Shown here one piece after another: positions 4,595 through 23,658 of a DNA stretch of 31,975 bases. The notes beneath the pieces were generated by a model. It saw only the letters and a program-made list of their open reading frames with translations, was not told the origin of the DNA and did no database searches. Each line of letters begins with the position of its first letter. The first letter of the stretch is position 1. Made by a program: the position numbers and the translations under genes. The stretch lies in IMG/VR virus record IMGVR_UViG_3300032295_001031, positions 1 through 31,975 of that record; one strand, written 5' to 3'. The DNA comes from a virus. Taxonomy: Duplodnaviria; Caudoviricetes.

Positions 4595-4604
4595 GGGATA
4601 GAAA

Positions 4605-5573: not shown

Positions 5574-5586
5574 ATTTCCTAGCTCA

Positions 5587-5635: not shown

Positions 5636-5980
5636 ATGAACGAGCAAGTTACTAAGGCCTTTGATATAGCCAACCTAATGGTTACTATGGCTAATCAAAA
5701 ACGGATCTTAAAAGAAGAATTTGAACAAACACTGTTTTATTTTCATAACGGTGGTACGTTTCAAGCTACCCCTGCGCTAATTGCATATGTTCAAAGTCTA
5801 AAATTATTAGAGTTAGAAGAAACTGTAATAGTTGATAATAATGGAATTCCGATACTTGTAAAAAGTCTTTCTAATTTTTTAGAACAACTGTTAGATTGTC
5901 ATGTACGAGCTAACAATTTGTATTTCACAAAATATGAAGATTTAAAAAAATCTAGATCTGTAGAAAGTATCCTAGCATAA
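5636..5980 (+). CDS. Hypothetical protein (114 aa), first gene of the enzyme cluster
   Basis: ATG with GGAG RBS at 5625-5628; TAATG coupling to the next gene. Confidence 0.75.
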   Translation: MNEQVTKAFDIANLMVTMANQKRILKEEFEQTLFYFHNGGTFQATPALIAYVQSLKLLELEETVIVDNNGIPILVKSLSNFLEQLLDCHVRANNLYFTKYEDLKKSRSVESILA

Positions 5981-6804
5981 TGACACAGGGAGTTTTAATT
6001 TTTGCATTTAACAGCGAGTTCAATTATCAAGAACTTGCATTAGCAGCAGCCAAACGAGTAAAAGAACACTTACAGTTACCAGTTAGTATTGTAACTGATG
6101 CAATAACCCCGTTACCAGAAATATTTACATCTGTATTTGATAAGATAATTTTTTCCGAAGATACTTCTACACAAACTAAAACTTTCTTTGACGGCGCCAC
6201 AGTATCAAATGTTTACGTTTGGAAAAATGCAAATCGATATCAAAGTTATGATCTAACTCCTTACGACGAAACCCTAGTAATTGACGCAGATTACTTAGTT
6301 AACGGTAATTTTTTATTAAATTGTTTTAAGTTAGAAAAAGATTTTTTAATTTACAAAAATTCCTATGATTTAACAGGATGGAGAGAAGCTAACGAGTTCA
6401 AATATGTAAATCAACATTCTATACCATTTTACTGGGCAACAGTGCTGTACTTTAAAAAAACAACAAAGACTCGTGTGCTGTTTGACCTAGTTGATTTTAT
6501 AAGACAAAACTGGAACTACTATAGATTAATCTATCAAATTCCTGAAAAGAAATTTAGAAACGATTATGCATTTAGTATTTCTTTACATATTTTAAATGGT
6601 TATATTACCGATAATGTTGACACAATTCCCGGAAAAATGTATTATGTTACAGATAAGGACGTTCTAATTGCCGCAACACCTACATCCTGCACGTTGTTAG
6701 TTGAAAAAGAACATGCAATGGGTGAATATACTGCTTTGAAAATTTCCGATGTTGATGTGCATGTAATGAACAAGCACAGTATTTTAAGGGTGTTAAATGA
6801 CTAA
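5980..6804 (+). CDS. Putative GT-A fold glycosyltransferase (pair 1, copy A)
   Basis: N-terminal GVLIFAFNS strand and a DxD motif after a hydrophobic strand (TPYDETLVIDADYL); also FRNDYAFS and HVMNK. Clearly paralogous to 6797-7633. Confidence 0.65.
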   Translation: MTQGVLIFAFNSEFNYQELALAAAKRVKEHLQLPVSIVTDAITPLPEIFTSVFDKIIFSEDTSTQTKTFFDGATVSNVYVWKNANRYQSYDLTPYDETLVIDADYLVNGNFLLNCFKLEKDFLIYKNSYDLTGWREANEFKYVNQHSIPFYWATVLYFKKTTKTRVLFDLVDFIRQNWNYYRLIYQIPEKKFRNDYAFSISLHILNGYITDNVDTIPGKMYYVTDKDVLIAATPTSCTLLVEKEHAMGEYTALKISDVDVHVMNKHSILRVLND

Positions 6805-7633
6805 AGGGCATTTAATTTTTGCACAAAATTCCGACATTGATTATGTTAGACAAGCCTATGCATTGGCATTGTCAATTAAACAACATAATAAAATAAACAG
6901 CGTTTGTTTAATGACAAATGATGCTGTTCCCTTTGAATATACAACAGCATTTGACCACGTAGTTTCAATCCCATGGGGAGATGCAGCTGAAAAATCTGAA
7001 TGGAAAATTGAAAATAGATGGAAGATAATTTATGCCACTCCGTATAATGAAACCCTAGTCTATGATTCAGACATGCTACTGTGTTCTTCTAATGACCATT
7101 GGTGGGACTATCTAGAAAATAAAAATGTTGCCTTAACCGGAAATGTACAAACATACAAAGGTGAAACTGTAACTAATAATTTTTATAGGAAATCATTTGT
7201 TGAAAATAATTTACCAGATCTATATTTTGGAATACATTACATTAAAAAAAATAAAAGATCCTATGAATTTTACAAATGGCTAGAAATTATTGTAAAAAAC
7301 TGGAAACAATACTACAGCATTTATACTCCTAATAATCCTCAGAAGTTTTGTAGTATGGATGTGTCGTCTGCTATTGCGGCAATAATATTAGATGCCAAAG
7401 AAGAATTCGGCACAGGTAATCCTTTAACTTTTACGCATATGAAGCCAGCAATACAAAACTGGCATGATATTCCGGATACATGGCAATCAGCAACTACTGT
7501 GCAGTTTACTGAACATACTGATCTTAAAATATCAAATTTTTTACAAACAGGTGTTTTTCATTATACTGAAAATGATTTTCTTACTGATGATATTATAAAA
7601 AAATTAGAGGCTGCATATGAATCAAGGAATTGA
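6797..7633 (+). CDS. Putative GT-A fold glycosyltransferase (pair 1, copy B)
   Basis: GHLIFAQNS...FDHVV...TPYNETLVYDSDML (DxD), FTHMKP and FHY. Paralogous to 5980-6804; overlaps the upstream gene by 8 nt. Confidence 0.65.
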   Translation: MTKGHLIFAQNSDIDYVRQAYALALSIKQHNKINSVCLMTNDAVPFEYTTAFDHVVSIPWGDAAEKSEWKIENRWKIIYATPYNETLVYDSDMLLCSSNDHWWDYLENKNVALTGNVQTYKGETVTNNFYRKSFVENNLPDLYFGIHYIKKNKRSYEFYKWLEIIVKNWKQYYSIYTPNNPQKFCSMDVSSAIAAIILDAKEEFGTGNPLTFTHMKPAIQNWHDIPDTWQSATTVQFTEHTDLKISNFLQTGVFHYTENDFLTDDIIKKLEAAYESRN

Positions 7634-8189
7634 AGGCATTGATTTTATAAGCGAAGAAGACCGCTTGCGTACACATAAAATGTTTTCTGCGCCCAATATG
7701 TTTTATGTATATTACGACGATGACAATAACATATATTCAATCACAAATGAAAAAAAAGATTCTGGAAACTTTGTTGAGACTACTGAAGCATTAGTTAAAG
7801 ATTTTCTCGAAGGTAAAAAAGATTATAAAAATTTTAAAATTAACGGCAGCAGAAATAAACAATTTATTGAAAACACTGTGTATGTTAAATCTGTTTACAA
7901 AGATTTTTCTGTAATAACACCTTGTGAGACTTCTCCTGAGTTAGCAGTATCTATTAAAGACAATAAAATAATTTTTAAAATTAATCTTGACATTACAGGA
8001 TATAGTGGAAATTTACAATTTTTTATTGTTGATAAAAACGATTATAATTGGCTATTTGAAACACTTGACGTAAATTTAGAAGATATTCAACTGCACGGAA
8101 GTGTTGAAAAACTTTTAAATTACAACTTTGAAAATATTGCCATACTTACTAAGAATTTTTTTAATTCTTATGGAATAGTAAATGACTAA
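7617..8189 (+). CDS. Hypothetical protein (190 aa)
   Basis: ORF overlaps both neighbours and fills the space between the two GT-like pairs; no recognisable motif. Confidence 0.7.
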   Translation: MNQGIEGIDFISEEDRLRTHKMFSAPNMFYVYYDDDNNIYSITNEKKDSGNFVETTEALVKDFLEGKKDYKNFKINGSRNKQFIENTVYVKSVYKDFSVITPCETSPELAVSIKDNKIIFKINLDITGYSGNLQFFIVDKNDYNWLFETLDVNLEDIQLHGSVEKLLNYNFENIAILTKNFFNSYGIVND

Positions 8190-9108
8190 AAAAATTAAAT
8201 TAATAGACTATGATGTTGTTTATCTAAGTTACGATGAACCTAATGCAGAAAAAAACTATGCTGATCTATTGACAAAAATACCTTGGGCTAAACGAGTTCA
8301 TGGAGTAGATGGCAGCGACAGCGCACACAAGGCCTGTGCAAGACTTGCAGAAACAGAACGTGTTACTATTATTGATGGCGACAATATTATTAAACCTGAA
8401 TTAATTCAACAGACAATTGAATTTATTGATGATGCAGATTTATCTAAATCTGTTCTATCATATGCAGCAGAAAACATTATTAATGGACTACAATACGGTA
8501 ATGGCGGAATTAAAAATTGGGATAGAGAATTAATTCTAAATATGAAAACTCATGAAAACGCTGATCCATCTAATGATAAAACTCAAGTAGATTTTTGTTG
8601 GGATATAAACTATCTACAGTTAAAAAGTTGCATGAGTTATGTGCATAATAACGCCACCCCTCATCAAGCATGGCGAGCAGGATTCCGCGAGGGCGTAAAA
8701 ATGAGCCTACTTGAAGGCAGCAAACCTACAAAAGATCGACCATTTGACAAACAAGTGCATTGGAAAAACTATCATAGACTGGTAACATGGATGAATGTTG
8801 GTGCAGATGTTAACCACGGTATATGGGCCATGTACGGTGCTAGATTAGGCTGCTGGATGACAAATCTTAAAGACAGTTGGGACCATACTAATGTTCGAGA
8901 CTTTAAGTATCTTAACAGCCTATGGAACGAAATTGAGACAAACGCAGATTTTGATTTGTCTCAAGAAATGCTAGATTTAGGAACACAGTTAAGGGATCAG
9001 TTAGGCATACTTACAGGTCCTAGCATTTTAGATCCAGATCAAAGCAAATTTTTTAAAGCACTATATACTAATCCTCCTCGAATGAAAAATAATTGGGTCA
9101 TAGAGTAA
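8182..9108 (+). CDS. Putative glycosyltransferase-like protein (pair 2, copy A)
   Basis: YDVVYLSYDEPNA...AKRVHGV.G...AH..CA...VTIIDGDN (DxD)...YGNGGIK...AWRAGFRE; layout resembles the GT2 nucleotide-binding half. Paralogous to 9108-9782. Confidence 0.6.
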   Translation: MTKKIKLIDYDVVYLSYDEPNAEKNYADLLTKIPWAKRVHGVDGSDSAHKACARLAETERVTIIDGDNIIKPELIQQTIEFIDDADLSKSVLSYAAENIINGLQYGNGGIKNWDRELILNMKTHENADPSNDKTQVDFCWDINYLQLKSCMSYVHNNATPHQAWRAGFREGVKMSLLEGSKPTKDRPFDKQVHWKNYHRLVTWMNVGADVNHGIWAMYGARLGCWMTNLKDSWDHTNVRDFKYLNSLWNEIETNADFDLSQEMLDLGTQLRDQLGILTGPSILDPDQSKFFKALYTNPPRMKNNWVIE

Positions 9109-9782
9109 TGTACGATATTGTTTTTATAAGTTATAACGAACCTAATGCAGATGAAAATTGGGAAAGGTTATCATCTAGGTTTCCTCTAGCTAAACGTGTG
9201 CATGGAGTTAAAGGCATTCATCAAGCACACATAGTGGCTGCAAAAAAATGTTTTACAAATATGTTTTGGGTAGTAGACGGAGATGCAGTAATACTTGATA
9301 CTTTTGATTTTAGTTATAAAACTAAATTACAAGACACAGTGCATGTTTGGCGTAGTCGTAATCCTATCAATGATCTTGAATATGGCAATGGCGGCGTAAA
9401 ACTGTTGCCTAGACATATGACTATTCGTATGGATACTAGAAAACCAGATATGACAACTAGTATTAGCACAAAATTTAAACCAGTATTAGAAGTCAGTAAC
9501 ATTACAGCATTTAACAGTGATCCGTTTAATACTTGGAAAAGTGCATTTAGAGAATGTTGCAAACTGTCTAGTAAAATAATAGACAGACAAAAAACAGATG
9601 AAACACAAAACAGATTGAATGCATGGTGTCAACTAGGTGCAGATAGGCTCTATGGAGAATATGCAATTAAAGGTGCCCTTGCCGGGGCTGAATATGGAAT
9701 TAAAAATAAAAAAAATTTAGAAGCGTTAAAATTAATCAATGACTTTGAATGGTTAGATAGTAAATTTAAGGAACAACTATGA
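9108..9782 (+). CDS. Putative glycosyltransferase-like protein (pair 2, copy B)
   Basis: Start moved from the track's TTG at 9093 to ATG at 9108 (TAATG coupling; MYDIVFISYNEPNA aligns with the paralog). Motifs FWVVDGDA (DxD), YGNGGVK and TWKSAFRE. Confidence 0.6.
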   Translation: MYDIVFISYNEPNADENWERLSSRFPLAKRVHGVKGIHQAHIVAAKKCFTNMFWVVDGDAVILDTFDFSYKTKLQDTVHVWRSRNPINDLEYGNGGVKLLPRHMTIRMDTRKPDMTTSISTKFKPVLEVSNITAFNSDPFNTWKSAFRECCKLSSKIIDRQKTDETQNRLNAWCQLGADRLYGEYAIKGALAGAEYGIKNKKNLEALKLINDFEWLDSKFKEQL

Positions 9783-10609
9783 AAGAATCTTCCGGTGTAC
9801 GAGAAGTATTCTTTGGTTTAGAAGAATACTTAAAATTTAAAAATAATGATGAAGGGACAGAGTTTCTTAGAGAATTTGTTAAAATTCTCGACAGCGAGGA
9901 CATACAAACTGCAATTCTTGAATATTGTATCAAGAATTTAAATGAACAAAACACTACAGATAAAATTTTTAGAAGTATATTTGATTATAAAAAGAAGGTA
10001 AATGATACTCACATTTATGATGCATTTAGCAGGAGCCAAATTAAAAGTAAAGTTTGGTTAATTGAAGAACTAGCAAGGATTAACGATCACTATGATAACG
10101 TAGTTGTTCTTGCTGGGTGGTACGGCCAATTAAAATCTATTTACGAACAAAGATTAACATATCGAAAGTTACGAAATGTTGAATTAGATAAAGCCGCATG
10201 TAATGCTAGCGATTATATTTTTAACATTGCAAATTTAGAAAACCATAAAGTAAAAGCAGTTCATGCAAATATCAATGAATTAACATTGCACAAAAACGGT
10301 TATGAGTGGACAGTAGAAAACTTTAAAGAAGGTACTAGTTACAGTGAAAAGTTTCTACCCGATTTAATTGTTAATACTAGTGCAGAGCATATGTCAGAAG
10401 AATGGTTTCATCAAATTAGATTTAAGCAACTAAAATCTAACCCTATCGTTGTGATTCAAAGTAATAACATGTTTGATGGTGATGGTCACATTAATTGTGT
10501 ACATAGTATTGATCATATGAAGAAAAAGTTTCCCATGAAAGAAATATTATACGAAGGCGAATTACAATTAAAAGGGTATAAGCGAGTGATGCTTATAGGT
10601 AGACCATGA
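9779..10609 (+). CDS. Putative class I SAM-dependent methyltransferase
   Basis: Gly-containing motif I-like VVVLAGWYG, acidic end of strand 2 (NVELD), ANIN and motif IV-like DLIVNTSAEHM. ATGA overlap with the upstream gene. Confidence 0.6.
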   Translation: MKESSGVREVFFGLEEYLKFKNNDEGTEFLREFVKILDSEDIQTAILEYCIKNLNEQNTTDKIFRSIFDYKKKVNDTHIYDAFSRSQIKSKVWLIEELARINDHYDNVVVLAGWYGQLKSIYEQRLTYRKLRNVELDKAACNASDYIFNIANLENHKVKAVHANINELTLHKNGYEWTVENFKEGTSYSEKFLPDLIVNTSAEHMSEEWFHQIRFKQLKSNPIVVIQSNNMFDGDGHINCVHSIDHMKKKFPMKEILYEGELQLKGYKRVMLIGRP

Positions 10610-10824
10610 TAGATGATTTAGAACTAAGAGATCTGCAAAAAGAAGCAGCTCGAGCACTAACGGTGATGGAAGCTACAAATAATAATATCTATAAGTATAA
10701 TGTGCAAGCACATCATAATAGTCAAAATTGGTATAAGGCCGTAATTAAAGATTATGTAGAAAAATACGGAGATCTTCCTAGTCGAGCAGGTCCTGCCAAA
10801 GACATAAAATTAGTAATAGAATAG
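10606..10824 (+). CDS. Small hypothetical protein (72 aa)
   Basis: ATGA overlap, AGGT upstream, fills the gap in the operon. Confidence 0.7.
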   Translation: MIDDLELRDLQKEAARALTVMEATNNNIYKYNVQAHHNSQNWYKAVIKDYVEKYGDLPSRAGPAKDIKLVIE

Positions 10825-10825
10825 C

Positions 10826-11188
10826 ATGTTAACATTTAGTAAAAATTTAAAAATTTATCTTTTTAAAGAAAAAGACAAGGTTAGCTTTAGTGTAAAGGTC
10901 AGTGACATATGCGTTAATGAATATTATTTTTCTATTGTTGAATTTGAAGAATTTATAAGCCAATGGAATATGCCCGGGGGAATTGATAAACATTACTCTA
11001 ATGGACACTGGAGTGTTATCTACAAAAAATCAACACCTAGACCGGAAGCAGCGGCTGCAAATTATGTTAGATTAACAGTATATAAAAACGGTATAGGTAA
11101 TCATCATCGTGTAGATTATAGTGATATGTTAGAAGTTCAAAAAGATTATTTCTATCAAAAGAATAACAAAATGTATTGGGACAATTAA
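10826..11188 (+). CDS. Hypothetical protein (120 aa)
   Basis: Starts after a 1-nt gap following the previous stop; TAATG coupling to the radical SAM gene. Confidence 0.7.
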   Translation: MLTFSKNLKIYLFKEKDKVSFSVKVSDICVNEYYFSIVEFEEFISQWNMPGGIDKHYSNGHWSVIYKKSTPRPEAAAANYVRLTVYKNGIGNHHRVDYSDMLEVQKDYFYQKNNKMYWDN

Positions 11189-12360
11189 TGTTATACACAT
11201 ACGATGAAATTAAGACAGTGCATTTAGAAATTACAGATAACTGTAATGCAGCCTGTCCCATGTGTGCCCGCAATATTAATGGCGGCCAGGAAAACCCACA
11301 AGTCCCGGGTACTGAACTTTTTATAGAAGACATTAAGAAAATATTTGAACCTAGTTTTATTGCACAATTAGATCGTATGTACATGTGCGGCAATTACGGA
11401 GATCCTATTGCCGCAAGGGATACGTTAGAGGCTTTTGCCTATTTTAGAGAACACAATCCTAAAATGAATCTTAGTATGATGACAAACGGTTCTGCTAAGA
11501 AACCAGAGTGGTGGAAGATGCTTGCTCATGTATTAGGTCCTAAAGGTTATGTTACATTTAGTATTGATGGATTAGAAGATACTAATCATCTATATAGACA
11601 AAATACCGTTTGGTCTAAGATTATGGAAAATGCACAGGCATTTATAGCCGCTGGCGGACGAGCACGTTGGGACTATATTGTGTTTGCGCACAACGAGCAC
11701 CAAGTAGAATCTGCAGAAATTTTATCAAAGTCTATGGGATTTGAACGTTTTCAATTTAAAAAATCTGCTAGATTCTTTAGTAATGCTAGCGGTGTCACTA
11801 AAGAAATACACCAAGCTGCTAATCGTAAGGGTATGGCAACTACTTTATTACAAGCACCTACTAATCCTAAATATCGAAATGCTGCTTTAAAAGAACTTAG
11901 TAAGATAGCTAAATCAGAAGAATCTATTAAATTTCTTCCTAGCCAGCAAAAAGATGTAGAAGGCTACACATTTCCGCAGATCTTCCACACAGATCCTGCA
12001 AAGAAAAAACCCATGGAAAAATATTGGGACGAAGTTCCTATTAAGTGCAAAGTTGCAGAAGAAAAAAGTCTGTATGTAAGTGCAGAAGGAATTGTACAAC
12101 CTTGTTGTTGGACAGCCGGCCAAATGTATGTTTGGTACTGGACTCCTAAAGGGGGACAAATTTGGAATTTAATAGAGCAAATTGGCAAAGACAATCTTAA
12201 TGCTACTAAATCAAATTTAAAAAGTATTGTTAATGGTAAATTTATGCAGGACCTTATTCCTAATAGTTGGGGCAAAAGTAGTTGTGCAGATGGAAAACTT
12301 GCAGTTTGTGCAAAAACGTGTGGCACTAAATATGACGCATTCAGCGAGCAATTTAAATGA
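11188..12360 (+). CDS. Radical SAM enzyme 1, with C-terminal SPASM/twitch-like Cys cluster
   Basis: CX3CX2C motif CNAACPMC (11242-11265), GNYGDP, TNG and FSIDG; C-terminal KC...GIVQPCCW...VCAKTC. Start moved to ATG 11188 (TAATG coupling). Confidence 0.92.
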   Translation: MLYTYDEIKTVHLEITDNCNAACPMCARNINGGQENPQVPGTELFIEDIKKIFEPSFIAQLDRMYMCGNYGDPIAARDTLEAFAYFREHNPKMNLSMMTNGSAKKPEWWKMLAHVLGPKGYVTFSIDGLEDTNHLYRQNTVWSKIMENAQAFIAAGGRARWDYIVFAHNEHQVESAEILSKSMGFERFQFKKSARFFSNASGVTKEIHQAANRKGMATTLLQAPTNPKYRNAALKELSKIAKSEESIKFLPSQQKDVEGYTFPQIFHTDPAKKKPMEKYWDEVPIKCKVAEEKSLYVSAEGIVQPCCWTAGQMYVWYWTPKGGQIWNLIEQIGKDNLNATKSNLKSIVNGKFMQDLIPNSWGKSSCADGKLAVCAKTCGTKYDAFSEQFK

Positions 12361-13361
12361 AATCTTTAGTTAGTAAATGGGATCACAATCAAGACAATCT
12401 ATCGGATAACAAAGTATTACGAGTCAATTGGCATCTGGGAAATACCTGCACCTACAAATGTAGTTACTGTGATCCAAAACTCAACAATGGCGATAAACCC
12501 TGGATAAACATTGCTGCTGCTAAAAAAATTGTTGATGATATTATTGCTGTCTACAGAGAAAAATATAATAAAACTATTTTTATATTTGAACTAACCGGAG
12601 GAGAGCCCACAGTATATCCTGGAATTGAAGAACTTTGCAATCACATGAAGAGTCTTGGCATTTACGTACAACTCTGTACCAATGGATCTAGAACAGTAAG
12701 GTGGTGGGAAGAAAATGCAAAAAACTTTACATCAATCACCAACAGTTATCATGTGGAATTTACCGATGTTAAACATCTAACAGCAGTGTGTAATACTGTG
12801 TTAGATCAAAATGTAACAGCCAATGTACTTGTATTGTTGGATCCATTGCATTTTGATAAAGTTAAAAACGATATCGAATACATGAAAGAGTTTGGAAATT
12901 TTGGAATTGCAGTTCGAAGAGTTTACGATAGAAATCCCTTTATTACTAGAAGTTATGAATACACTCCAGAGCAACTGGATTATCTCAATGATAATGTAAT
13001 AATAAAAGAAAAAATATCTGTAGAATTCCCTCAAGAAATGCGGTATCGAACAATAATGATAAAAGACGAAACATCATTGAACGTAAATGAAAATGCTATG
13101 TTTAACACTAAGGATAATGATTTTTTAGGTTGGGATTGTTACGCCGGAATAGACACACTATCCTTGGATGTAACTGGAAATATATTACCAGCCTATTGTT
13201 ATACTGGTTACAAACAAGTAATAGGTAATTGGCTAACAGATAATCTAGCAGATTTACAATGGCCACTAGGGCCAATGAAATGTGGAGATACAAAATGCAT
13301 ATGTGTACACGATATGAGAGCACGAAAGATTAAAAATTTGAATGAAATCTTTAGTGAGTAA
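12357..13361 (+). CDS. Radical SAM enzyme 2 (subfamily B), C-terminal auxiliary Cys cluster
   Basis: CTYKCSYC, TGGEPT and TNGS; C-terminal WDCYAG...YC...KCGDTKCIC.HD. Confidence 0.92.
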   Translation: MKSLVSKWDHNQDNLSDNKVLRVNWHLGNTCTYKCSYCDPKLNNGDKPWINIAAAKKIVDDIIAVYREKYNKTIFIFELTGGEPTVYPGIEELCNHMKSLGIYVQLCTNGSRTVRWWEENAKNFTSITNSYHVEFTDVKHLTAVCNTVLDQNVTANVLVLLDPLHFDKVKNDIEYMKEFGNFGIAVRRVYDRNPFITRSYEYTPEQLDYLNDNVIIKEKISVEFPQEMRYRTIMIKDETSLNVNENAMFNTKDNDFLGWDCYAGIDTLSLDVTGNILPAYCYTGYKQVIGNWLTDNLADLQWPLGPMKCGDTKCICVHDMRARKIKNLNEIFSE

Positions 13362-13369
13362 AATGCCAG

Positions 13370-13377
13370 TATAAATA
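13370..13377 (+). promoter_or_regulatory. T4-type late promoter motif TATAAATA
   Basis: Exact T4 late consensus in the only sizeable intergenic gap (13362-13429) inside the enzyme cluster. Confidence 0.55.
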
Positions 13378-13429
13378 TGTTGTCCTTTAGATATTAAAAA
13401 ATACTTGTGACCTATAAGAAAAATTAGTA

Positions 13430-15087: not shown

Positions 15088-15088
15088 A

Positions 15089-16489
15089 TTGAGTTATCCT
15101 AGTAAAACATTTTGTATTCTACCTTGGGTACATTTAAGTACGAGACCAGATGGCAGCATGCGGGTATGCTGCACAGCTAATGCCAGCGGAGTAGGAGCCA
15201 GCAATGATAAAAAATTAGGTGGAGCACAAGTTGGTGTACTTAAAGACGATGAAGGTCTTCCTAGCAATCTTAACAATACAGATTTTCAAACAGCGTGGAA
15301 TAGTAATTACATGAAGAATGTACGTAAGCTGATGTTAGCAGGCGAACAACCTCCAAGCTGCACTAAATGCTACAAAGAAGAAGCAGCAGGACACAATAGC
15401 AAACGTCAATGGGAAACTGAATATTGGTCAAAACGTGTAAGCATTGACACATTAATTAATGAAACTAACGACGATGGCAGTGTTCCTCCACAGTTGGCCT
15501 ACATTGATCTGCGGTTTGGAACAAAGTGCCAACTGGCCTGTGTCATGTGCAGCCCACATGACAGCAGTGGTTGGATCAAAGATTGGCAAAAAGTATTTCC
15601 TACACTGGAAAATGAGGGAGTTAAAAAGATATGGCAATGGGACAACAAGGGCAGCATCAACGGCAGTAGTTACAATTGGCACAAACAAAATCCTGTATTC
15701 TGGCAACAATTCTATGAACAGATTCCACATATGCAACAGGTATACTTTGCTGGTGGTGAACCCCTGATCATTGACGAACATTATGAAATTCTAGAAGAGA
15801 TCATTCGGCAGGGTCGTGCTAAAGACATTGAGATACGTTATAACAGTAACGGAGTTGAATGGCGTGAAGATCTATTTGAGTTATGGAGTCATTTTAAAAT
15901 TGTACGTTTCCATTACAGTGTAGACAGTATAAGTGCTATGAACGAATACATTCGATATCCTAGCAAGTGGGAGCGTACACAAGAAGTGTTTCGCATACTC
16001 GATGAACAGACTACAGACAACGTAGAAGTTACTATTGCCTGTGCTGTTAATGCTCTAAACATATACTACATTCCAGACTTTTTAAAATGGAAACTATCTC
16101 AAAACTTTAAGAAAGTTAATATGTGGCCGTTAGGAGCAGGCGGTATCAATTATCACTTTGTCTACTGGCCTGCCTTTCTAAATGTAAAAGTATTGCCGCA
16201 ATGGTTTAAAGACGCTTGTGAGCAAAAGTATGAAGAATTTATTCCCTGGTTTGAAGAAAATTGGGAATTGTGCCTATCTGAAAAAGACAGAGGAAAAGTA
16301 AGTAAAGAACGCTGGTTAGCAAACAGCTATGGTGTTAAAAGATTACGCGGTATGATTAGCTTTATGAAAAGCGAAGATTGGAGTCAACGCTTACCGGAAA
16401 TGAAAGACTATCTAGAAAAAATAGATGCCCATAGGGGGATTTCTTTCTATGACACTTTTAAAGAAATGAAGGATATTTTTAATGGATGA
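15089..16489 (+). CDS. Radical SAM enzyme 4 (subfamily C), N-terminal twitch-like domain
   Basis: N-terminal FCILPWVHL...G.MRVCC...CTKC; core DLRFGTKCQLACVMC, FAGGEP and YIRYPSKW. TTG start with AAGG upstream, consistent with the N-termini of its paralogs. Confidence 0.92.
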   Translation: MSYPSKTFCILPWVHLSTRPDGSMRVCCTANASGVGASNDKKLGGAQVGVLKDDEGLPSNLNNTDFQTAWNSNYMKNVRKLMLAGEQPPSCTKCYKEEAAGHNSKRQWETEYWSKRVSIDTLINETNDDGSVPPQLAYIDLRFGTKCQLACVMCSPHDSSGWIKDWQKVFPTLENEGVKKIWQWDNKGSINGSSYNWHKQNPVFWQQFYEQIPHMQQVYFAGGEPLIIDEHYEILEEIIRQGRAKDIEIRYNSNGVEWREDLFELWSHFKIVRFHYSVDSISAMNEYIRYPSKWERTQEVFRILDEQTTDNVEVTIACAVNALNIYYIPDFLKWKLSQNFKKVNMWPLGAGGINYHFVYWPAFLNVKVLPQWFKDACEQKYEEFIPWFEENWELCLSEKDRGKVSKERWLANSYGVKRLRGMISFMKSEDWSQRLPEMKDYLEKIDAHRGISFYDTFKEMKDIFNG

Positions 16490-17606
16490 CAACATTTTCT
16501 GTGTAGCACCGTTTGTTAATTTAAGCACGACTAACAACGGAAAAGTTAGACTTTGCTGTCAGTCAAATACTCTAGATGACCTGCATGTGAACACACACAG
16601 TCTTGAGGACATATGGCATGGCAAAGAGTATAAACGTATACGAGGACAATTTTTAAATAACGAGTGGCCAAAAGAATGTGTTACTTGTAAAATTAATGAA
16701 GATAAAAATATCCCCAGTCGTCGAGAGTTTGAAAATCAAAAGTGGTCTCAGATAGAAAAAAAACCATATCCTACCAGTGCTATAGATTTTCCATGGGCAG
16801 TTGATCTTAGACTTGGTAATCTCTGTAATTTAAAATGTGTAATGTGTACACCGCACAACAGCAATACATGGTATGACGAATTTGAAAATTTCAAACACTT
16901 ACAGTTCTTTAAAAAAGACGAAAATGTTCGATGGCCGTTCCACGCTAGTTTTCTAGACAACTATACAGAATGGATATCAAAAGTAAAAGTATTATATTTT
17001 AGCGGTGGCGAGCCCTTGTTGTTAAAAAAACACAAAGAAATTATAGAATTTTTAATTGAACAGGATCTAGCAAAAAATATTATTCTTTGGTACGATACTA
17101 ACGGCACCTATATCGATCAAGAATGGATTGACATGTGGGCCTGCTTTGAAGAAGTTAATCTAAGTCTAAGCATTGACGGCGGCAAAGTAGTTAATGAATA
17201 TATACGATATCCTGTAAATCACGATAATCTTTTAGAAAAATACAAACTTCTTTCTACAAGACCGGAAAATATTAAAGTTAAGTTACAAATAGCAATTGGT
17301 GCTTTAAATATTTTTGAACTTCATAGCATTAGACAATATTCAAGAATGTTTAATTTCTCACTTAATTTTAATGTAAGTATTGTATTTTGGCCAACTTTTA
17401 TGACATTAGATGCACTACCTCAAAGTGTAATAGACCAGCTAGAAAATCTGTATAAAAATGATTATAATGATAGGATTAAAAATATGACTAAAAATCTTAA
17501 ACACGATCCGCAAAAACTAAAAGAACTAAAAGAATATTTGAATAAAATAGATGAATTAAGAGGGTTAGATCATAAAACCTGTTTTGAATACCTATATAAG
17601 GAGTAA
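16482..17606 (+). CDS. Radical SAM enzyme 5 (subfamily C), N-terminal twitch-like domain
   Basis: FCVAPF...GKVRLCC...CVTC; DLRLGNLCNLKCVMC; FSGGEP; DTNG; SIDG; YIRYP. Confidence 0.92.
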   Translation: MDDNIFCVAPFVNLSTTNNGKVRLCCQSNTLDDLHVNTHSLEDIWHGKEYKRIRGQFLNNEWPKECVTCKINEDKNIPSRREFENQKWSQIEKKPYPTSAIDFPWAVDLRLGNLCNLKCVMCTPHNSNTWYDEFENFKHLQFFKKDENVRWPFHASFLDNYTEWISKVKVLYFSGGEPLLLKKHKEIIEFLIEQDLAKNIILWYDTNGTYIDQEWIDMWACFEEVNLSLSIDGGKVVNEYIRYPVNHDNLLEKYKLLSTRPENIKVKLQIAIGALNIFELHSIRQYSRMFNFSLNFNVSIVFWPTFMTLDALPQSVIDQLENLYKNDYNDRIKNMTKNLKHDPQKLKELKEYLNKIDELRGLDHKTCFEYLYKE

Positions 17607-17607
17607 T

Positions 17608-19572
17608 ATGAAAATAGCGTTTGGTTACTGGGACACTAGAAAATTAGCAAAAGGAATAACAAAAAATTTTGCTGATTTAACATTGTACTGGACAAAGACA
17701 ACCGGTGATACATTAGCAAAGCAAGTAGATACAACTATCACTAGTTTTATTATTTCTTCAGATAATATAAACACAATAATAAAACAAGCAAGTATAGAAT
17801 CTGCTGATTTTTTGTTTGTAGTGTCGTCAGGTACTATTTTCTTAAACCCTATTCCTGTAGCCAACGGCCTATTAGAATTTATAAAAACAAACCCTGCAAT
17901 AGCTGGACACATTATTGACCATTCAATTAAAAACAATAATTGGAAATCTTTCTTTGGCTTACACGAGCAGTGTATTTTAATTTCTAAAAGAGTGATTGAC
18001 GATATAGTAACTGAAGATTTTATAATAACAGAATCATTTGAATATAGTGATACTAGTTGGCCGTCAATTGTAAGAAGTCAAGAAAATATACATGATGACT
18101 ATACTCCGCTATGGATAACAAAAGAATCTGAAAAAACATTACAAATAGAAAAGAAAAATTCTGAATTCTGTCTTTTTCACGACCTAATTAAATTTGCCAT
18201 TAACAAAAATTATACTATACACAACTTACCTCAAGAAGTTAGACAGCATAGAACCTATACGTATCATTTAACTAGACCGGGCGACATTGAAGCATTAATA
18301 GATAAACCGTTATCTGAAATCAACAAGATAGAAACACAGGTAAAAGGACATAAAGAATTTTTAATTAAATGGAAAACGTTATTAAATCCCGAAACAGGTT
18401 TTTGGGCCTATAATACAGAATCTACAACAGTTGATAAGAATTTAAAAGTTGATTGTTTTATTGCTGTTGCTAGTGGAATTATTCCGTGGAGCTATCTTGC
18501 AAAATTTGATCTCCAGCCAAATTCAAATATTTATTTTGTTGATGTAAATCAAAACTGTCTAGACTTTCAAAAATATATTTTAGACAATCTTTACAACTTT
18601 GATAATTATGCAGATATTGTTGAAGAATTTAACAAAGAGCGTGGTCTAATTAAATTTGGATCAAAAAGCCAAGCAGTAGATGAAGATAAGTTATTAACTG
18701 AAATTAAAGAAAAATGGAACATTATTAAAACTTGTAATTTTTACTTTGTCAACGGCAACATTATTCAACTAACTGACGACATTAAACAGTCTGTAAAGAA
18801 TTCCAAACATCCGTACCTTTGGTTTAGTAATGTACTACGTTACATTCCTAGTTTAACACAAATGTATCATGATGACAATCTTCAGGCCTATCTAACAGAA
18901 TTGCTATCTTATAATTTAAACTTTTCTTGGTCAGGAATTGGCATTAATAATCATAGAAGTTCTGGACCAAATAGTTTACCAAACGCTTCTGGAAATTTTT
19001 ATAAAACACTAAACATTAAATTGCCGTATGATGATTTTTTAGATGAGATAGAAACTTTAGAAAAATTAAAACTTTTTACTCCACACAGAGAAGAAAACTC
19101 TGTTAAGGGAGTTAGTCTACATAGGGGATGGTCAAGTTTTGTTATGCACGGTTTAGGGTATAACAAAACTGAGGGATATGAAGTTTATGGGTATGCCAAT
19201 AATGACGATGCTCCGTATGATTGGACACTGGAATCATTAGAGCATTGTCCAAAATTAGTAGCTTGGTTTAAAGAAAACAAGTTTAAAGACAGATATCATA
19301 GAGTTAGAATAATGAAATTAGCACCAGGAGGAATGATAGGACTACATTACGATAATCCTAACTCCGATACATGGGCAACTAATATGGCTATTAATAATCC
19401 GGAAGAATGTGAAATGCATTTTTGGAATAAAAATTGGCAGTATTTAGGCCAAGTTCCTTGGAAAGCTGGTGACACTAATAAGATTAGAATTGGTTACTAT
19501 CACATAGTAATTAATAAAAGCAATAAAGCAAGATATCATATGATCACACATGGAGAAGGCGGATGGATGTAA
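17608..19572 (+). CDS. Multi-domain protein with C-terminal 2OG-Fe(II) oxygenase (Asp/Asn beta-hydroxylase-like) domain and possible central Rossmann/methyltransferase-like domain
   Basis: Start moved to ATG 17608 (AAGGAG RBS at 17598-17603). The C-terminal RVRIMKLAPGGMIGLHYD...HIVINKSNKARYH gives the HxD...H facial triad plus the 2OG-binding Arg. The central IAVASG...IYFVDVN...WFSNV resembles a SAM-binding fold (weaker). The N-terminal domain is unassigned. Confidence 0.72.
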   Translation: MKIAFGYWDTRKLAKGITKNFADLTLYWTKTTGDTLAKQVDTTITSFIISSDNINTIIKQASIESADFLFVVSSGTIFLNPIPVANGLLEFIKTNPAIAGHIIDHSIKNNNWKSFFGLHEQCILISKRVIDDIVTEDFIITESFEYSDTSWPSIVRSQENIHDDYTPLWITKESEKTLQIEKKNSEFCLFHDLIKFAINKNYTIHNLPQEVRQHRTYTYHLTRPGDIEALIDKPLSEINKIETQVKGHKEFLIKWKTLLNPETGFWAYNTESTTVDKNLKVDCFIAVASGIIPWSYLAKFDLQPNSNIYFVDVNQNCLDFQKYILDNLYNFDNYADIVEEFNKERGLIKFGSKSQAVDEDKLLTEIKEKWNIIKTCNFYFVNGNIIQLTDDIKQSVKNSKHPYLWFSNVLRYIPSLTQMYHDDNLQAYLTELLSYNLNFSWSGIGINNHRSSGPNSLPNASGNFYKTLNIKLPYDDFLDEIETLEKLKLFTPHREENSVKGVSLHRGWSSFVMHGLGYNKTEGYEVYGYANNDDAPYDWTLESLEHCPKLVAWFKENKFKDRYHRVRIMKLAPGGMIGLHYDNPNSDTWATNMAINNPEECEMHFWNKNWQYLGQVPWKAGDTNKIRIGYYHIVINKSNKARYHMITHGEGGWM

Positions 19573-20798
19573 ATAAGGAAACATTTTGTATTGCACCCTT
19601 TACTCATTTGTCAACAAAAACAGATGGCAGTATAAAAGCCTGTTGTAGAAGCTTGCCATCCCTAGCAAACATAAAGAACGAATCTTTATTGCAGGCATGG
19701 AATAATAGTGAAATGAAACAGCTTCGTAGCGATCTTATAAACGGTATTAAAAATGAAAAGTGCAATGTTTGTTGGAAACTAGAAGATGTTGGAGCACAAA
19801 GCCTTCGAATGAAATATAACAATCCAAATACTGGCAGACAACTAATTAATGCAGATACAAATTTAAAATCTTTAAATGAGGATTATAGTTTAAACAACAA
19901 GCCAACATGGATTGAATTTAAACTTAGTAATCTTTGTAATTTTAAATGTCGTATGTGTCATCCTATGGACAGTACACGCTGGTTTGAAGATTATAAAAAG
20001 ATAGTACATTTACACGATACTGGTTGGCAGAAAGAAATGGAAAATCTTAATCTAACTAAAAAATCGTTGTTAAGAAGTTATTCGGAAGAATTTTTTGAAA
20101 GTCTGCCAGAGTTAATGAGTAATGTTGATGAAATTTGGTTTGCTGGCGGAGAGCCGCTTTATGACGACGATCACTATAGAATACTTGATAGTGTAATGCA
20201 TCGTGCTGATAAAATTACTTTAAATTATGCAACTAATTTAAGTATGCTATCTAATAAAAAATACAACGTAGTTAATTATTGGAAAAAGTTTAAGAAAGTT
20301 ATTGCAGCAGTAAGTTTAGACGGACCACCTGAACTTAATGAATATATTAGGTCCGGTGCTGATAGTAAAGTTATTGAAGAAAATATAAAAATAGTACAAA
20401 AAGAATTGCCTAATGTTCTTATACATGGTAAAATGACAGTGCAAGCCTTAAACATTTATTATGCCCCAGAAACATTTGAATGGTTTAAAAGTATGAATGT
20501 TTTTACCGGGGTACATTTTGTTACGTGGCCAAATTTTTTAGATAGTCGTATATGGACTGGTGATGCAAGACAAGAGATAAAAGAAAAACTACAAAGTTAT
20601 CTAACTCATCAAGATAATCTTGTTGGCTTGCAATTAAATGTAGGTAATAGTGTTAGAGACATTGTTAGATTTTTTAATGCAGCAAATAAATTTGACGACA
20701 CTCAATGGAATAAGTTCTTAGAGTATAATAAAACACTTGATGTTGCAAGAAATGAAACATTTGAAAAATTTGAGTTTTTAAAAAAATGGATGAAATAA
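19563..20798 (+). CDS. Radical SAM enzyme 6 (subfamily C), N-terminal twitch-like domain
   Basis: FCIAPFTHL...GSIKACC...CNVC; SNLCNFKCRMC; FAGGEP; YATN; SLDG; YIRSG. Confidence 0.92.
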   Translation: MDVNKETFCIAPFTHLSTKTDGSIKACCRSLPSLANIKNESLLQAWNNSEMKQLRSDLINGIKNEKCNVCWKLEDVGAQSLRMKYNNPNTGRQLINADTNLKSLNEDYSLNNKPTWIEFKLSNLCNFKCRMCHPMDSTRWFEDYKKIVHLHDTGWQKEMENLNLTKKSLLRSYSEEFFESLPELMSNVDEIWFAGGEPLYDDDHYRILDSVMHRADKITLNYATNLSMLSNKKYNVVNYWKKFKKVIAAVSLDGPPELNEYIRSGADSKVIEENIKIVQKELPNVLIHGKMTVQALNIYYAPETFEWFKSMNVFTGVHFVTWPNFLDSRIWTGDARQEIKEKLQSYLTHQDNLVGLQLNVGNSVRDIVRFFNAANKFDDTQWNKFLEYNKTLDVARNETFEKFEFLKKWMK

Positions 20799-21967
20799 AA
20801 TCTAAAACATTCTGTGTGTTACCTTGGATGCATCTAGCTACAAATGCTAGCGGTAATCTTCGAGTATGCTGTAATAGCAGTCCAAAAAATAATAATATTT
20901 TAAAAAGTAACGGATCTTCGTATCAGGTCCAACGAGATGACATGTTAGAAGCATGGAATAGTCCCACGTATACAAAAATAAGACAGCAGTTTTTAGATGG
21001 CGAACGACCTGATATGTGCGTTAGATGTTTTCGAGAAGAAGATGCAGGTATCAAAAGTGCAAGACAAGCAGCTAACAGCAAATGGGGGACGGACGGAGAG
21101 TATCCGATTCAGGCAACATTTAATATTAGGTATGTTGATATTCGATTGAGTAATTTATGTAATCTAAAATGTCGTATGTGTAACCCGTATGCTAGTAATA
21201 TGTGGACAGAAGAATGGCCTTTAATAGGTGAAGTTCTCAGTCAAAGTGAATACGATAGATTAAACAACATGGATTGGCCTGAACGAGAAAAAACTTGGGA
21301 AAATTTATATCTTATTGCCGACACTGTAGAAGAAATATATCTAACAGGCGGTGAGCCAACTATTATTAAAGCACAGCATAAACTCTTAGATTATTTTATA
21401 GATAGGGGTACTGCTAAAAATATTAGATTAAAATACAATACAAATCTTACTAATGTTCCAAAACATTTATTAGATCGGTGGACTCATTTTAAACGTGTAC
21501 AATTAAATTGTTCTATTGATGCAACCGGCGAACTTGATCGATATATTAGATTTCCTAGCAGTTGGCAGCATATTCAAGAAAATTTTGAAAAAATTAGGAC
21601 ATTAAAAAATTGTGCAATTGAAATACATTGTACTGTACAAATGTATAATATACTTCGCCTTGACGAATTAATTGATTGGGCTGTTCCTTACGGCCACAAG
21701 ATTTATTTTAATATATTAAATCATCCCGAAGAATTAAACATACGAGTTTTGCCGCAACACTTAAAAGAACAAGCAACTAAATTATTACAATCTTACTTGC
21801 ATTTAGACAAAGTTAAGGGTATAATTGACTATATGAATGCAGAAGATTGGAGCCACAAACTTCCTAAGTTTTATGCCTATACCGATGCATTAGATAAATC
21901 ACGAAATCAAAATTTATCATTATTAATACCAGAACTATCACATGAAAATACTAGTAGCAGGAAATAA
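20786..21967 (+). CDS. Radical SAM enzyme 7 (subfamily C), N-terminal twitch-like domain
   Basis: FCVLPWMHL...GNLRVCC...CVRC; DIRLSNLCNLKCRMC; LTGGEPT; YNTN; SIDA; YIRFPSSW. Confidence 0.92.
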   Translation: MDEIKSKTFCVLPWMHLATNASGNLRVCCNSSPKNNNILKSNGSSYQVQRDDMLEAWNSPTYTKIRQQFLDGERPDMCVRCFREEDAGIKSARQAANSKWGTDGEYPIQATFNIRYVDIRLSNLCNLKCRMCNPYASNMWTEEWPLIGEVLSQSEYDRLNNMDWPEREKTWENLYLIADTVEEIYLTGGEPTIIKAQHKLLDYFIDRGTAKNIRLKYNTNLTNVPKHLLDRWTHFKRVQLNCSIDATGELDRYIRFPSSWQHIQENFEKIRTLKNCAIEIHCTVQMYNILRLDELIDWAVPYGHKIYFNILNHPEELNIRVLPQHLKEQATKLLQSYLHLDKVKGIIDYMNAEDWSHKLPKFYAYTDALDKSRNQNLSLLIPELSHENTSSRK

Positions 21968-22496
21968 AAATTACGGCCTTGCTGCCGAATTGTATAAACT
22001 ATATCCAGATGCTTTTTTTGCTAGTCGCACTAGCGGGTTTGATTTAACAAAAAATGACGATCAAAAAAAATTAGCAGATTTAGTATTAGAGTATGATGTT
22101 TTCATCAACTGTAGTGCCTTATGGAAATTTAATCAAACTGTGTTACTTGATACAGTTTATAAAAAATGCACAGATAATAATCATCGTTCTTATATTATAT
22201 GCATTGGGTCTACTACTGATCGTGTGAAGAAAGGTGGAGCTTGGTTATACAATGCAGAAAAGAAAGCCTTAAGAGATTACTGCAATACATTAGGAATGAA
22301 TGGCGTCTGGGGTGTTACACCTAAAATAACTTTAATAAGTTTTGGAAGCCTAAGTAATGTTCAAGAAAAACACCCTACAAGAAAATGTTTAGACATTGAT
22401 AGAGCAGCGATATATATTAAGTGGTTATTAGAACAACCGACTGATATTTGTATTAACGAAATTAGTATAGATCCACTACAACAACCTTATGAATGA
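21942..22496 (+). CDS. Minimal short-chain dehydrogenase/reductase (SDR)-like protein (184 aa)
   Basis: N-terminal ILVAGNKNYGLA (Rossmann Gly motif), DLT, DVFINCS, ICIGS (catalytic Ser region) and YNAEK (YxxxK). Confidence 0.75.
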   Translation: MKILVAGNKNYGLAAELYKLYPDAFFASRTSGFDLTKNDDQKKLADLVLEYDVFINCSALWKFNQTVLLDTVYKKCTDNNHRSYIICIGSTTDRVKKGGAWLYNAEKKALRDYCNTLGMNGVWGVTPKITLISFGSLSNVQEKHPTRKCLDIDRAAIYIKWLLEQPTDICINEISIDPLQQPYE

Positions 22497-23658
22497 TTTA
22501 AGCTGGTCAGCATATGACTTCACTCAAATACCTTACAATGATATTGTTCGTGTAGGACAACGTACAATGTTGTACAAAGATCTCTTTACAGTCAGTTGGC
22601 TGTTAGGACGTTACTGCAATTATCGTTGCAGTTATTGCTGGCCATATGCCCGCAGTGACAGCAAAGATCACAGACCAACCGAACTGTGTTTGCGTACAAT
22701 AGATGAAATTAAACGACAGGCTAGAGAACGTAACTTTAACAGTTTCCATTTTAGTCTTAGTGGCGGCGAGCCTACCTTCCATCCTGGTTATATTGATATC
22801 CTTAATTACCTAAATGACGATGTAGCCAACACAAACTACACCAGTGTACACATGACCAGTAATATGAGCAGACCACTCAAATGGTTTGAAGAAAAGTATT
22901 GTCCTGCTGTTAGTAAGTTTCATCGTGCCAGTATCACTGCTAGTCTGCACACAGAACATGTAGACACCCCTGAGAAGATGCAGGAATTTGCTGACAAATT
23001 AATACTTTGTCAGAAACACGATGTTCAAATAACCATCAATCAAGTTATGGTTCCTGAATGGTTTGATCGTGATTTTGAAAATGCACTTTTCTTTCACAAT
23101 CAAGGTATCAATGTAACACTAAAACCGCAGAGCGATCCTACTGCCAGTAAAGTAGTAGATGGCTATACTGATGAGATGTTGAAACGTCTGCATAACGGTA
23201 TGCCGCAACGTGCGTTTACGGAGACAAAAAGCGCACTCGCCAAACTGGTAAAAAGACCTGAACCTAAGTTCTTTAAAACACCTGATCCCATATATCAAGA
23301 AGCACAGAGTAAAGTACCACAACACTTTCAAGTAGAGTTTAGAGATAGTGAGCATAAGATTTGGTATATGGATCAAGCAGAACGTTTTAATGCTTTTAAT
23401 TTTAACAAATTTAAAGACTGGGAATGTTCAAGCGGTTATAGAGGAATTATTATTCGCGAACCTGACGGCAGTATTAAACGTAGTTACAGTTGCGGTGATG
23501 CTCCTCTAGGAAATATTGAGACAGGATTTAAATTGTTTGATGGGCCTAAGCCTTGTATTAGTGATAGTTGTGTAAGTAGTGCTGATAGTAAAATACCCAA
23601 AAGAGCGCCCGGAACAAAGTTACCTCTGTGGCCGGGCGATACGACTTTTGAAAATTAA
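22489..23658 (+). CDS. Radical SAM enzyme 8 (divergent subfamily B), last gene of the cluster
   Basis: WLLGRYCNYRCSYC, SGGEPT, TSN and SLHTE; C-terminal WECSSG...SC....GN...PCISDSC. Confidence 0.92.
   Translation: MNDLSWSAYDFTQIPYNDIVRVGQRTMLYKDLFTVSWLLGRYCNYRCSYCWPYARSDSKDHRPTELCLRTIDEIKRQARERNFNSFHFSLSGGEPTFHPGYIDILNYLNDDVANTNYTSVHMTSNMSRPLKWFEEKYCPAVSKFHRASITASLHTEHVDTPEKMQEFADKLILCQKHDVQITINQVMVPEWFDRDFENALFFHNQGINVTLKPQSDPTASKVVDGYTDEMLKRLHNGMPQRAFTETKSALAKLVKRPEPKFFKTPDPIYQEAQSKVPQHFQVEFRDSEHKIWYMDQAERFNAFNFNKFKDWECSSGYRGIIIREPDGSIKRSYSCGDAPLGNIETGFKLFDGPKPCISDSCVSSADSKIPKRAPGTKLPLWPGDTTFEN

Follow-up and report, generated by a model that had tools for sequence, protein, structure and literature searches.

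The window analysed here is the whole of a 32-kb virus record (IMG/VR IMGVR_UViG_3300032295_001031, positions 1-31,975) from an uncultured freshwater giant phage, and right behind its tail genes it carries a biosynthetic cluster of 20 genes, all on the + strand and packed into ~18 kb (5636-23658). We found that this cluster is made of two modules with different distributions, where a first-pass annotation, made from the sequence alone, had seen one single pathway that builds a glycan and then tailors it. Module A (a 114-aa protein, the glycosyltransferase (GT)-like pair GTa/GTb and a 190-aa protein) was found here only in phages. Module B comprises a second pair, GTc/GTd, a methyltransferase, three core radical S-adenosylmethionine (SAM) enzymes (R1, R4 and R8) and a short-chain dehydrogenase/reductase (SDR). 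We distinguish the two because A was seen only in phages and is tied to the gene at 4605, which directly precedes the cluster, and B is shared with bacterial envelope-glycan loci. We give an even chance to the reading in which the operon puts a glycan on tail or baseplate proteins of the phage itself, followed by chemical editing of the sugar. The cluster, with its leader, an internal promoter motif and the gene at its right edge, is laid out as follows (RBS, ribosome-binding site; 2OG, 2-oxoglutarate).

5574-5635, +: operon leader hairpin (dG -18.8, z -3.1) that pairs three of the four RBS bases and whose 5' arm includes a late-like CATAATTA (5598)
5636-5980, +: conserved 114-aa protein without a known family; clustering at 50% gives 724 representatives
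5980-6804, +: GTa, GT8/glycogenin-like GT-A protein, paralog of GTb (DAD 102-104, H261)
6797-7633, +: GTb, GT8/glycogenin-like GT-A protein by profile and model (DSD 90-92, H255)
7617-8189, +: divergent 190-aa protein without a known family, flanked by GTb and GTc in 60/60 loci
8182-9108, +: GTc, GT-A (GT2-like) protein by predicted fold (DGD 65-67)
9108-9782, +: GTd, paralog of GTc (DGD; gene fusions, invariant DxD)
9779-10609, +: predicted class I methyltransferase
10606-10824, +: conserved 72-aa protein (43 homologs in the first 80 loci)
10826-11188, +: variable 120-aa protein (6 homologs in the first 80 loci)
11188-12360, +: R1, core radical SAM enzyme with a C-terminal Cys cluster (PF04055; bacterial homologs 41-48% identical)
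12357-13361, +: R2, accessory radical SAM enzyme with a C-terminal Cys cluster (PF04055)
13370-13377, +: T4-type late promoter motif TATAAATA, the window's only copy, in the 68-nt gap between R2 and R3
13430-14452, +: R3, accessory radical SAM enzyme with a C-terminal Cys cluster (PF04055)
14449-15087, +: accessory FkbM-family methyltransferase (PF05050 and TIGR01444 above cut-off)
15089-16489, +: R4, core radical SAM enzyme of the N_Twi_rSAM family (NF033640, 429.7 bits; bacterial homologs 58-61% identical)
16482-17606, +: R5, accessory N_Twi_rSAM enzyme (NF033640, 297 bits)
17608-19572, +: 654-aa protein, AspH-type Fe/2OG hydroxylase domain at the C-terminus (PF05118, 28.8 against a cut-off of 22.6 bits; HYD 580-582), N-terminal part without an assignment
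19563-20798, +: R6, accessory N_Twi_rSAM enzyme (NF033640, 334 bits)
20786-21967, +: R7, accessory N_Twi_rSAM enzyme (NF033640, 401 bits)
21942-22496, +: short SDR-like protein with a YNAEK motif (bacterial homologs 27-45% identical)
22489-23658, +: R8, core radical SAM enzyme (75-97% identical among the best 80 phage matches, 57-66% in Bdellovibrionota)
23655-24329, -: ThyX, convergent, with which the island usually ends on its right side in close relatives (library scan, synteny)

All of the 20 co-oriented, mostly overlapping genes described in the first-pass annotation are present. Fifteen of the 19 gene junctions overlap, three have a 1-nt gap and one, the sole sizeable one, a gap of 68 nt; the first gene begins 62 nt past the end of the 4605 gene. 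Maximum 19-residue hydropathy is 1.39, and hence no membrane segment is predicted in any of the 20 proteins. Long contigs from a second, independent metagenome extend over nearly all of 4500-24400 with an identical layout, which argues that the cluster is no assembly artefact, and no joint of the kind expected from island replacement inside one population was seen in these contigs. Twenty sequencing runs share words with the stretch; their labels, where given, read lake, freshwater or riverine, with one fungus metagenome.

A search of IMG/VR with GTc returned at least 597 relatives, the best 80 of which were kept, and together with the Ralstonia phage RsoM2USA (MG752970) they gave 65 distinct GTc sequences; R8 relatives were found on 371 viral contigs. 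Among these best 80 of at least 597, GTc has the 114-aa gene, GTa and GTb ahead of it in 52 of the 53 loci with enough flank. In 50 of 51 loci the gene immediately upstream of the 114-aa gene is a homolog of the 4605 gene, and this holds also when the remaining tail genes have left the vicinity (L026 and RsoM2USA). The four-GT core does not vary between marine, freshwater and soil phages, the Ralstonia phage included, and complete relatives measure 344-400 kb. Among 50,697 phage records, GTb, GTc and the 4605 protein match RsoM2USA alone (GTa and GTd were not searched there).

None of the computable outcomes that the first-pass annotation had named as speaking against it was found: linkage to a virion-type gene is fixed across the surveyed relatives, and of the four DxD proteins, GTb and GTc, one per pair, have a predicted GT-A fold. 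The DxD is invariant in each of the four families. No Pfam GT family scores above cut-off for GTb or GTc, and GTa and GTb as single sequences match no Pfam family at all. The GTb profile matches glycogenin with an E of 1.4e-7, and its structure model (pLDDT 96), with glycogenin, GlyE and UGGT as fold neighbours, predicts a GT-A fold with a DxD and a C-terminal His as in GT8/glycogenin. GTa, a paralog of GTb (hhalign 99.8%) with weak glycogenin matches of its own, is assigned the fold by paralogy only. Glycogenin, GlyE and UGGT act on proteins or protein-linked glycans. Profiles of all four module A proteins had no match in 18 bacterial stretches carrying module B, and GTb had none in two whole bacterial genomes holding module B, a search that stops short of all 201 bacterial genomes considered below. 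An assignment of the 114-aa protein to DUF4376 or to a fibre chaperone found no support, the hhalign probability for DUF4376, 0.17%, being no better than that of shuffled controls.

In module B, the best fold matches of GTc include SunS, STIV A197 and the PBCV-1 capsid glycosyltransferase. GTd most likely starts at ATG 9108, in agreement with the invariant M2 of the alignment, and it occurs fused to GTc, to GTc plus the methyltransferase and, in one bacterium, to two GT2 domains. The second class I methyltransferase proposed earlier at 9779 finds weak backing in an MJ0882 profile match (E 5e-4) and in an Atlas cluster with PF13847 at 21%; its homologs were found on 7 bacterial stretches and, at 25% identity, in the Pelagibacter phage Mosig. 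In L021, L028 and L045 these homologs bear imperfect tandem repeats of ~20 residues near the N-terminus, varying in number. In five of the radical-SAM-free loci (L047, L063, L066, L071 and L072), the homolog lies beyond thyX on the opposite strand, and GTd is longer (341-378 aa).

Orthologs of R4 occur in Bdellovibrionia and Bdellovibrionales records as an R8-R4-R1 triad beside GT2 genes. Across 201 Bdellovibrionota genomes we found GTc/GTd in 9, R8 in 8 and both in 7 (hypergeometric P 1e-10, uncorrected for kinship), and the two lie at most 15 kb apart in 6 of the 7 genomes with both. These loci also hold homologs of the methyltransferase, R1, R4 and the SDR, along with many of the same accessory genes. 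We scanned 96 chosen neighbours, the majority drawn from a list of 121, and found among them numerous GT2s, PMT_2 membrane transferases, DegT proteins, nucleoside diphosphate (NDP)-sugar epimerases, a Bac_transf/CapD block, prepilin-type N-termini and O-antigen-type genes. Module B adjoins prepilin-type genes in G001 and G054, and in G001 GTd forms the N-terminal domain of a 1220-aa protein carrying two GT2 domains. The glycan part of the earlier proposal is supported, even if its unity is not, by the setting of module B in bacteria, where GT2, GT-C and NDP-sugar genes surround it and fusion to GT2 domains occurs. In a tree of R8, all 28 phage rows fall on one side of a 100/100 branch and the midpoint lies among the 8 bacterial rows; the phage rows were the best query matches with near-duplicates dropped, and the tree has no outgroup and gives no direction of transfer. 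Several bacterial loci are worth recording. In a Bdellovibrionia contig (L174, G001:C169:1-9700), the gene run flgM-flgN-flgK-flgL-csrA-fliW leads straight into three radical SAM homologs and a desaturase. A Bdellovibrionales contig (L168-L169, G002:C275) has ~16 radical SAM genes in 45 kb, with carbamoyltransferase, PP-loop, AspH-type and SIS-domain genes that are partly common to phage islands. An MbnB/TglH/ChrH-family gene occurs at L171:2349-3719 together with a small protein, in the vicinity of a bacterial radical SAM island to which they may or may not belong.

The eight CX3CX2C enzymes reported earlier are intact, with one motif each, and 8/8 score above the Pfam PF04055 gathering cut-off. 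The auxiliary Cys clusters attributed to them are likewise present in all eight, N-terminal in R4, R5, R6 and R7 (15089, 16482, 19563 and 20786) and C-terminal in R1, R2, R3 and R8 (11188, 12357, 13430 and 22489). With 297-430 bits, R4-R7 exceed the NF033640 cut-off of 170 bits, while R1, R2, R3 and R8 reach only 21-50 bits and stay under the cut-off of every NCBIfam family; for R2 and R3 the top-scoring model is that of viperin, far below its cut-off. R1, R7 and R8 were compared with the PDB, and in these three of the eight the suggested analogy to BtrN was not borne out; neither they nor the SDR have a close solved relative there, and R7 has no PDB sequence match at all. Maturase models of the radical SAM/SPASM type for peptides made on the ribosome and modified after translation (RiPPs) all score far below cut-off for the cluster proteins, and with a largest gap of 68 nt the cluster has no room for a RiPP precursor gene. 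The FkbM-type methyltransferase and the HxD oxygenase domain of the first reading are both upheld by library matches above cut-off. In favour of the SDR claim there is a YNAEK motif; the protein itself has no Pfam or PDB match, and its 45%-identical bacterial homolog matches adh_short_C2 below cut-off.

Downstream of the GT core the island is hypervariable, with 0-12 radical SAM genes. Eight contigs stitched from GTc and R8 loci carry 4-12 of them, each with R1, R4 and R8 orthologs; these contigs were chosen for R8 and two are near-identical. The other island genes fall into 187 clusters, and 77 representatives were scanned from the 99 clusters with at least two members. Their matches include sugar genes (GDP-mannose dehydratase, DegT aminotransferases, UDP-glucose dehydrogenase, mannose-phosphate isomerase/cytidylyltransferase) as well as carbamoyl- and acetyltransferases, methyltransferases, 2OG oxygenases (AspH-type hydroxylases), a desaturase and a PP-loop protein, and over half of the 77 have no family match. 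Away from the main island, by ~130 kb, a second pair of GTd and methyltransferase with more radical SAM genes was seen in a complete relative (L182, G003:C1:346600-347900, and L177). Two contigs from Neisseriaceae and Arcticimaribacter metagenome-assembled genomes (L084 and L085) bear a phage-like island with R4 71-78% identical; they are probably phage contigs in bacterial bins rather than evidence of hosts.

Signals in front of the 114-aa gene suggest that the operon would form a separate transcription unit, of early type in most relatives and perhaps of late type in the window. Among 50 distinct leaders of this gene, which are related by descent so that promoter counts are not independent, 33 contain a sigma-70-type promoter (TTGACA-N16-18-TATAAT) against 0.4 expected from dinucleotide-block shuffles, and 32 fold with z < -2, mostly covering the RBS and in several cases followed by a T run. 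Most relatives have TTGACA-N17-TATAAT at the place where the window copy has its late-like sequence; the window leader is one of the minority that lack the sigma-70 promoter, and it has the hairpin. Leaders of moxR (18/22) and of the vWA gene (21/25) are also of the sigma-70 class, unlike those of homologs of the tail gene at 3143, where TAAATA occurs in 39/44, a sigma-70 promoter in 0/44 and the hairpin in none. A looser late-variant motif was present in 23 of the 50 leaders against 11.4 expected, and since this signal is weak across relatives the late-like sequence of the window is a candidate promoter only. Generality of the late motif at 13370 is unsupported, the gaps before radical SAM genes in relatives having a sigma-70 promoter in 4/9 and TAAATA in 2/9; a sigma-70 scan of the whole cluster gave 106 matches against 88.9 +/- 10.1 expected, not clearly above chance. 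A promoter within an RBS-sequestering stem, the design of this leader, is described for T4 gene e in the available text of PMC3014915. The hairpin appears apt to insulate the operon from tail-gene read-through. Given this and the putative promoter of its own, the earlier statement that the cluster is joined to the tail genes holds physically and not as shown co-transcription. In the window, the DUF2201 metallopeptidase/vWA gene adjoins a gene for a MoxR-like ATPase, named from motifs without a library match (25860-28202, -).

Four genes of virion type precede the leader.

61-1263, +: tail protein with a collar domain (PF07484 above cut-off, PHROG tail matches); open reading frame of 400 aa as called, probably cut by the window edge because relatives measure ~700 aa
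1263-3101, +: virion structural or fibre-like protein, 21% Ser+Thr (PHROG virion structural matches)
3143-4594, +: tail-fibre-like protein with a weak C-terminal Peptidase_G2 match (Pfam and PHROG scans); late motif TAAATA upstream at 3114
4605-5573, +: Ser/Thr-rich (24%) 4605 protein, a putative virion protein from its position before the 114-aa gene in 50/51 loci

The label of tail-fibre genes given to this block earlier fits the first three, through their tail or virion matches, and not the fourth, for which no family match was obtained. We take the 4605 protein as the leading candidate for the glycan acceptor. A baseplate wedge PHROG is matched by 2 of the 44 members of its family, and in RsoM2USA the 4605-like part is fused behind an N-terminus that resembles, by eye, those of the 1263 and 3143 proteins.

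We favour virion glycosylation because module A, the solubility of the enzymes and their fold neighbours fit it, and we infer every chemical step of the pathway. The operon would be switched on from its own promoter, with the hairpin silencing or stopping late read-through from the tail genes, and the soluble enzymes would be made ahead of, or along with, the build-up of virion proteins. Module A, a glycogenin/GT8-like pair with two small partners, could then start a glycan on a virion protein, the 4605 protein being the first candidate, and GTc/GTd with the often-fused methyltransferase could add a further methylated sugar or sugar-like unit. R1, R4 and R8 together with the SDR may oxidise, reduce or rearrange the added unit or its nucleotide-sugar donor, and swappable paralogs and accessory enzymes may vary the decoration between strains, like a virion serotype. 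Separate transcription is compatible with a virion target since, in the available text of PMC11256854, the glycosyltransferases of Maravista, a relative of Che8, are placed towards the 3' end and at a distance from the structural genes. A broader version of this scenario is tentative and on balance doubtful: in it, a widespread clade of aquatic jumbo phages would prime a glycan on their own tail protein with the glycogenin-like pair, and a radical SAM cassette taken from predatory bacteria and grown to a dozen paralogs, of an enzyme family without a known reaction, would write strain-specific edited sugars onto the virion as a serotype system.

A number of observations weigh against a virion target. 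The target itself is our inference. The 4605 protein of the window has no family or structure match, and the 10 identified virion bands of RsoM2USA do not include its counterpart ORF355 in the available text of PMC8504454. L003 and G004 lack the link to 4605, the 114-aa gene of G004 coming after other genes, and L070 has module B without module A, so the synteny may partly reflect shared ancestry. The radical SAM part is dispensable: in 8 loci GTd leads straight to thyX with zero radical SAM genes in the island. In the fold search with GTc, the best glycosyltransferase leads nucleotidyltransferases by no more than ~2 Z units, with TM-scores of just ~0.3. Bacterial module B has membrane GT-C neighbours, of which the window has none. 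Finally, the sigma-70-class leader of 33/50 relatives, shared with moxR and vWA and not with the 3143 gene, suits a host-directed early function equally well.

That last point leads to the alternative that the operon remodels a host surface glycan (O-antigen, capsule, pilin or flagellin) early in infection, blocking rival phages or altering recognition by predators, which we regard as possible but rather unlikely. It draws on the sigma-70-type leader of most relatives and on the nature of module B as a bacterial envelope-glycan cassette, once found directly after the flagellar genes flgM-flgL-fliW. Soluble enzymes can also act on cytoplasmic glycan precursors. A role of this kind has been proposed for the GT8-rich islands of pelagimyophages (PMC7029224, available text). 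However, the four-GT core is invariant across environments although host glycans differ, the bacterial loci examined yielded no module A, the window cluster has no membrane component, and remodelling of the host would need no tight linkage to one virion-type gene.

We consider it improbable that the product is not a glycan at all, or that the enzymes edit protein or lipid directly, with a nucleotide-derived small molecule, the 72-aa protein or fibre residues as possible products or substrates and modules A and B perhaps independent. The inseparability of the GTc fold from nucleotidyltransferases would fit this, as would the accessory AspH-type hydroxylases, desaturases and PP-loop ATPases, which are not sugar-specific, the viperin model as the best, far sub-threshold score of R2 and R3, and the ability of module B to stand alone in L070 and in bacteria. 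Yet GTd is fused to canonical GT2 domains, NDP-sugar neighbours recur, the 72-aa protein has zero Cys and little Ser/Thr, and the window cluster leaves no room for a small precursor gene. Least probable of all, and in our view very unlikely, is hypermodification of phage DNA, in which sugars on a modified base would be edited by the radical SAM enzymes. The early-type promoter and the adjoining thyX are in keeping with it, as are a divergent second thymidylate-synthase-family gene in RsoM2USA and TAGT matches below cut-off on two bacterial GT2 fusions, and we keep it alive because a QueE-like gene is conserved in the window and in 4/4 IMG/VR relatives. Against these stand the lack of a QueE match in RsoM2USA, which has the GT core, and the envelope loci in which bacterial module B sits. 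Moreover, a 5-hydroxymethyluracil DNA kinase (PF18723) was not found in 3 complete relatives or in RsoM2USA, the Vi01 control being positive; no thymidylate-synthase-fold gene was found in the complete island-bearing genomes G003 and G004 (control 10/14); and no DpdA or TGT was found in 5 records, a search that a divergent phage DpdA could escape. Tet_JBP had no match in the relatives' genomes in a search without a positive control.

Two genes outside the cluster may be noted here. The QueE-like radical SAM gene of the window (31161-31967, -) scores below the NCBIfam cut-offs. The second thymidylate-synthase-family gene of RsoM2USA (7739-8398, L231) lies beside a deaminase gene, a possible nucleotide modification locus apart from the island.

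Radical SAM enzymes form unusual bonds, and here arrays of 4-12 occur in hundreds of viral contigs. A few per cent of the Bdellovibrionota genomes surveyed carry the same radical SAM family. If the virion is the target, phage glycosylation would widen from plain sugars to hypervariable, chemically edited coats, which could set host range or resistance to grazing. The two-module anatomy shrinks a 20-gene problem to a small soluble core of which a cultured phage has a minimal version, and the leader signals yield a clear prediction for the timing of the operon.

Phage GT islands beside tail genes and glycosylation of virions are known; the two-module, radical-SAM-expanded form is uncharacterised. 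In the literature searched, which covered few subscription papers, we found no description, test or biochemistry of the cassette, and the available parts of PMC12801897 and bioRxiv 10.64898/2026.06.18.733297 do not describe it. R4-R7 belong to NF033640, the N_Twi_rSAM family of radical SAM proteins with a twitch domain, for which that literature yielded no reaction, and R1, R2, R3 and R8 do not. One of the closest known systems, according to the available text of PMC7029224 (2020), is the host recognition cluster (HRC) of pelagimyophages and cyanomyophages, a hypervariable island beside the tail-fibre genes of T4-like aquatic myophages that has glycosyltransferases, GT8 being the commonest, and radical SAM cassettes gained or lost. 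Its proposed role is modification of the host O-chain, no test being reported in that text. The HRC differs in lying between VrlC and gp14 in smaller phages, whereas the present island begins at the 4605 gene and extends to thyX, in relatives of 344-400 kb; its right edge is the convergent thyX with non-structural genes instead of gp14 (VrlC was not searched for). Cultured pelagiphages have no match to GTb or GTc, and only the methyltransferase matches Mosig, at 25%.

The model for the reading we favour is the glycosylation of virions by mycobacteriophages such as Che8 and its relatives, in which phage glycosyltransferases act on the phage's own structural proteins (PMC11256854, PMC12619734), Che8 capsids being glycosylated (PMC11256854). 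No mycobacteriophage matches GTb or GTc, however, and the available texts of both papers do not mention radical SAM tailoring. Moraphages, with predicted Bacteroidota hosts, also have four core GTs (PMC12619734, available text), a comparison made by description only. In fold, GTb resembles glycogenin/GT8 and GlyE of S. pneumoniae, and GTc resembles STIV A197 and the PBCV-1 capsid glycosyltransferase; the DxD is conserved in both cases, at identities of 12-16% or less. The Vibrio phages K566 and K567 have distant radical SAM clusters (23%) that lack the GT core; in the cultured phage K566 (L083) this cluster lies at 12.9-21.7 kb. Bdellovibrionota loci with GTc/GTd, methyltransferase, R1, R4 and R8 resemble module B and its accessory genes and have no module A.

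The cultured phage RsoM2USA (PMC8504454) is a further close case. Some 90 kb from its core, ORF199-203 (L082:13991-19567) encode an N-twitch-like radical SAM protein, a carbamoyltransferase-like protein and three similar proteins that look SGNH-like by eye. The core itself, ORF355-347, is undiscussed in the available text of that paper; its genes are annotated as hypothetical and adjoin those for the tail tube, the sheath and an NDP-sugar epimerase. With one island radical SAM gene against eight in the window, it encodes in succession the 4605-like protein, the 114-aa protein, GTa, GTb, the 190-aa protein, GTc, the radical SAM enzyme, GTd and the methyltransferase.

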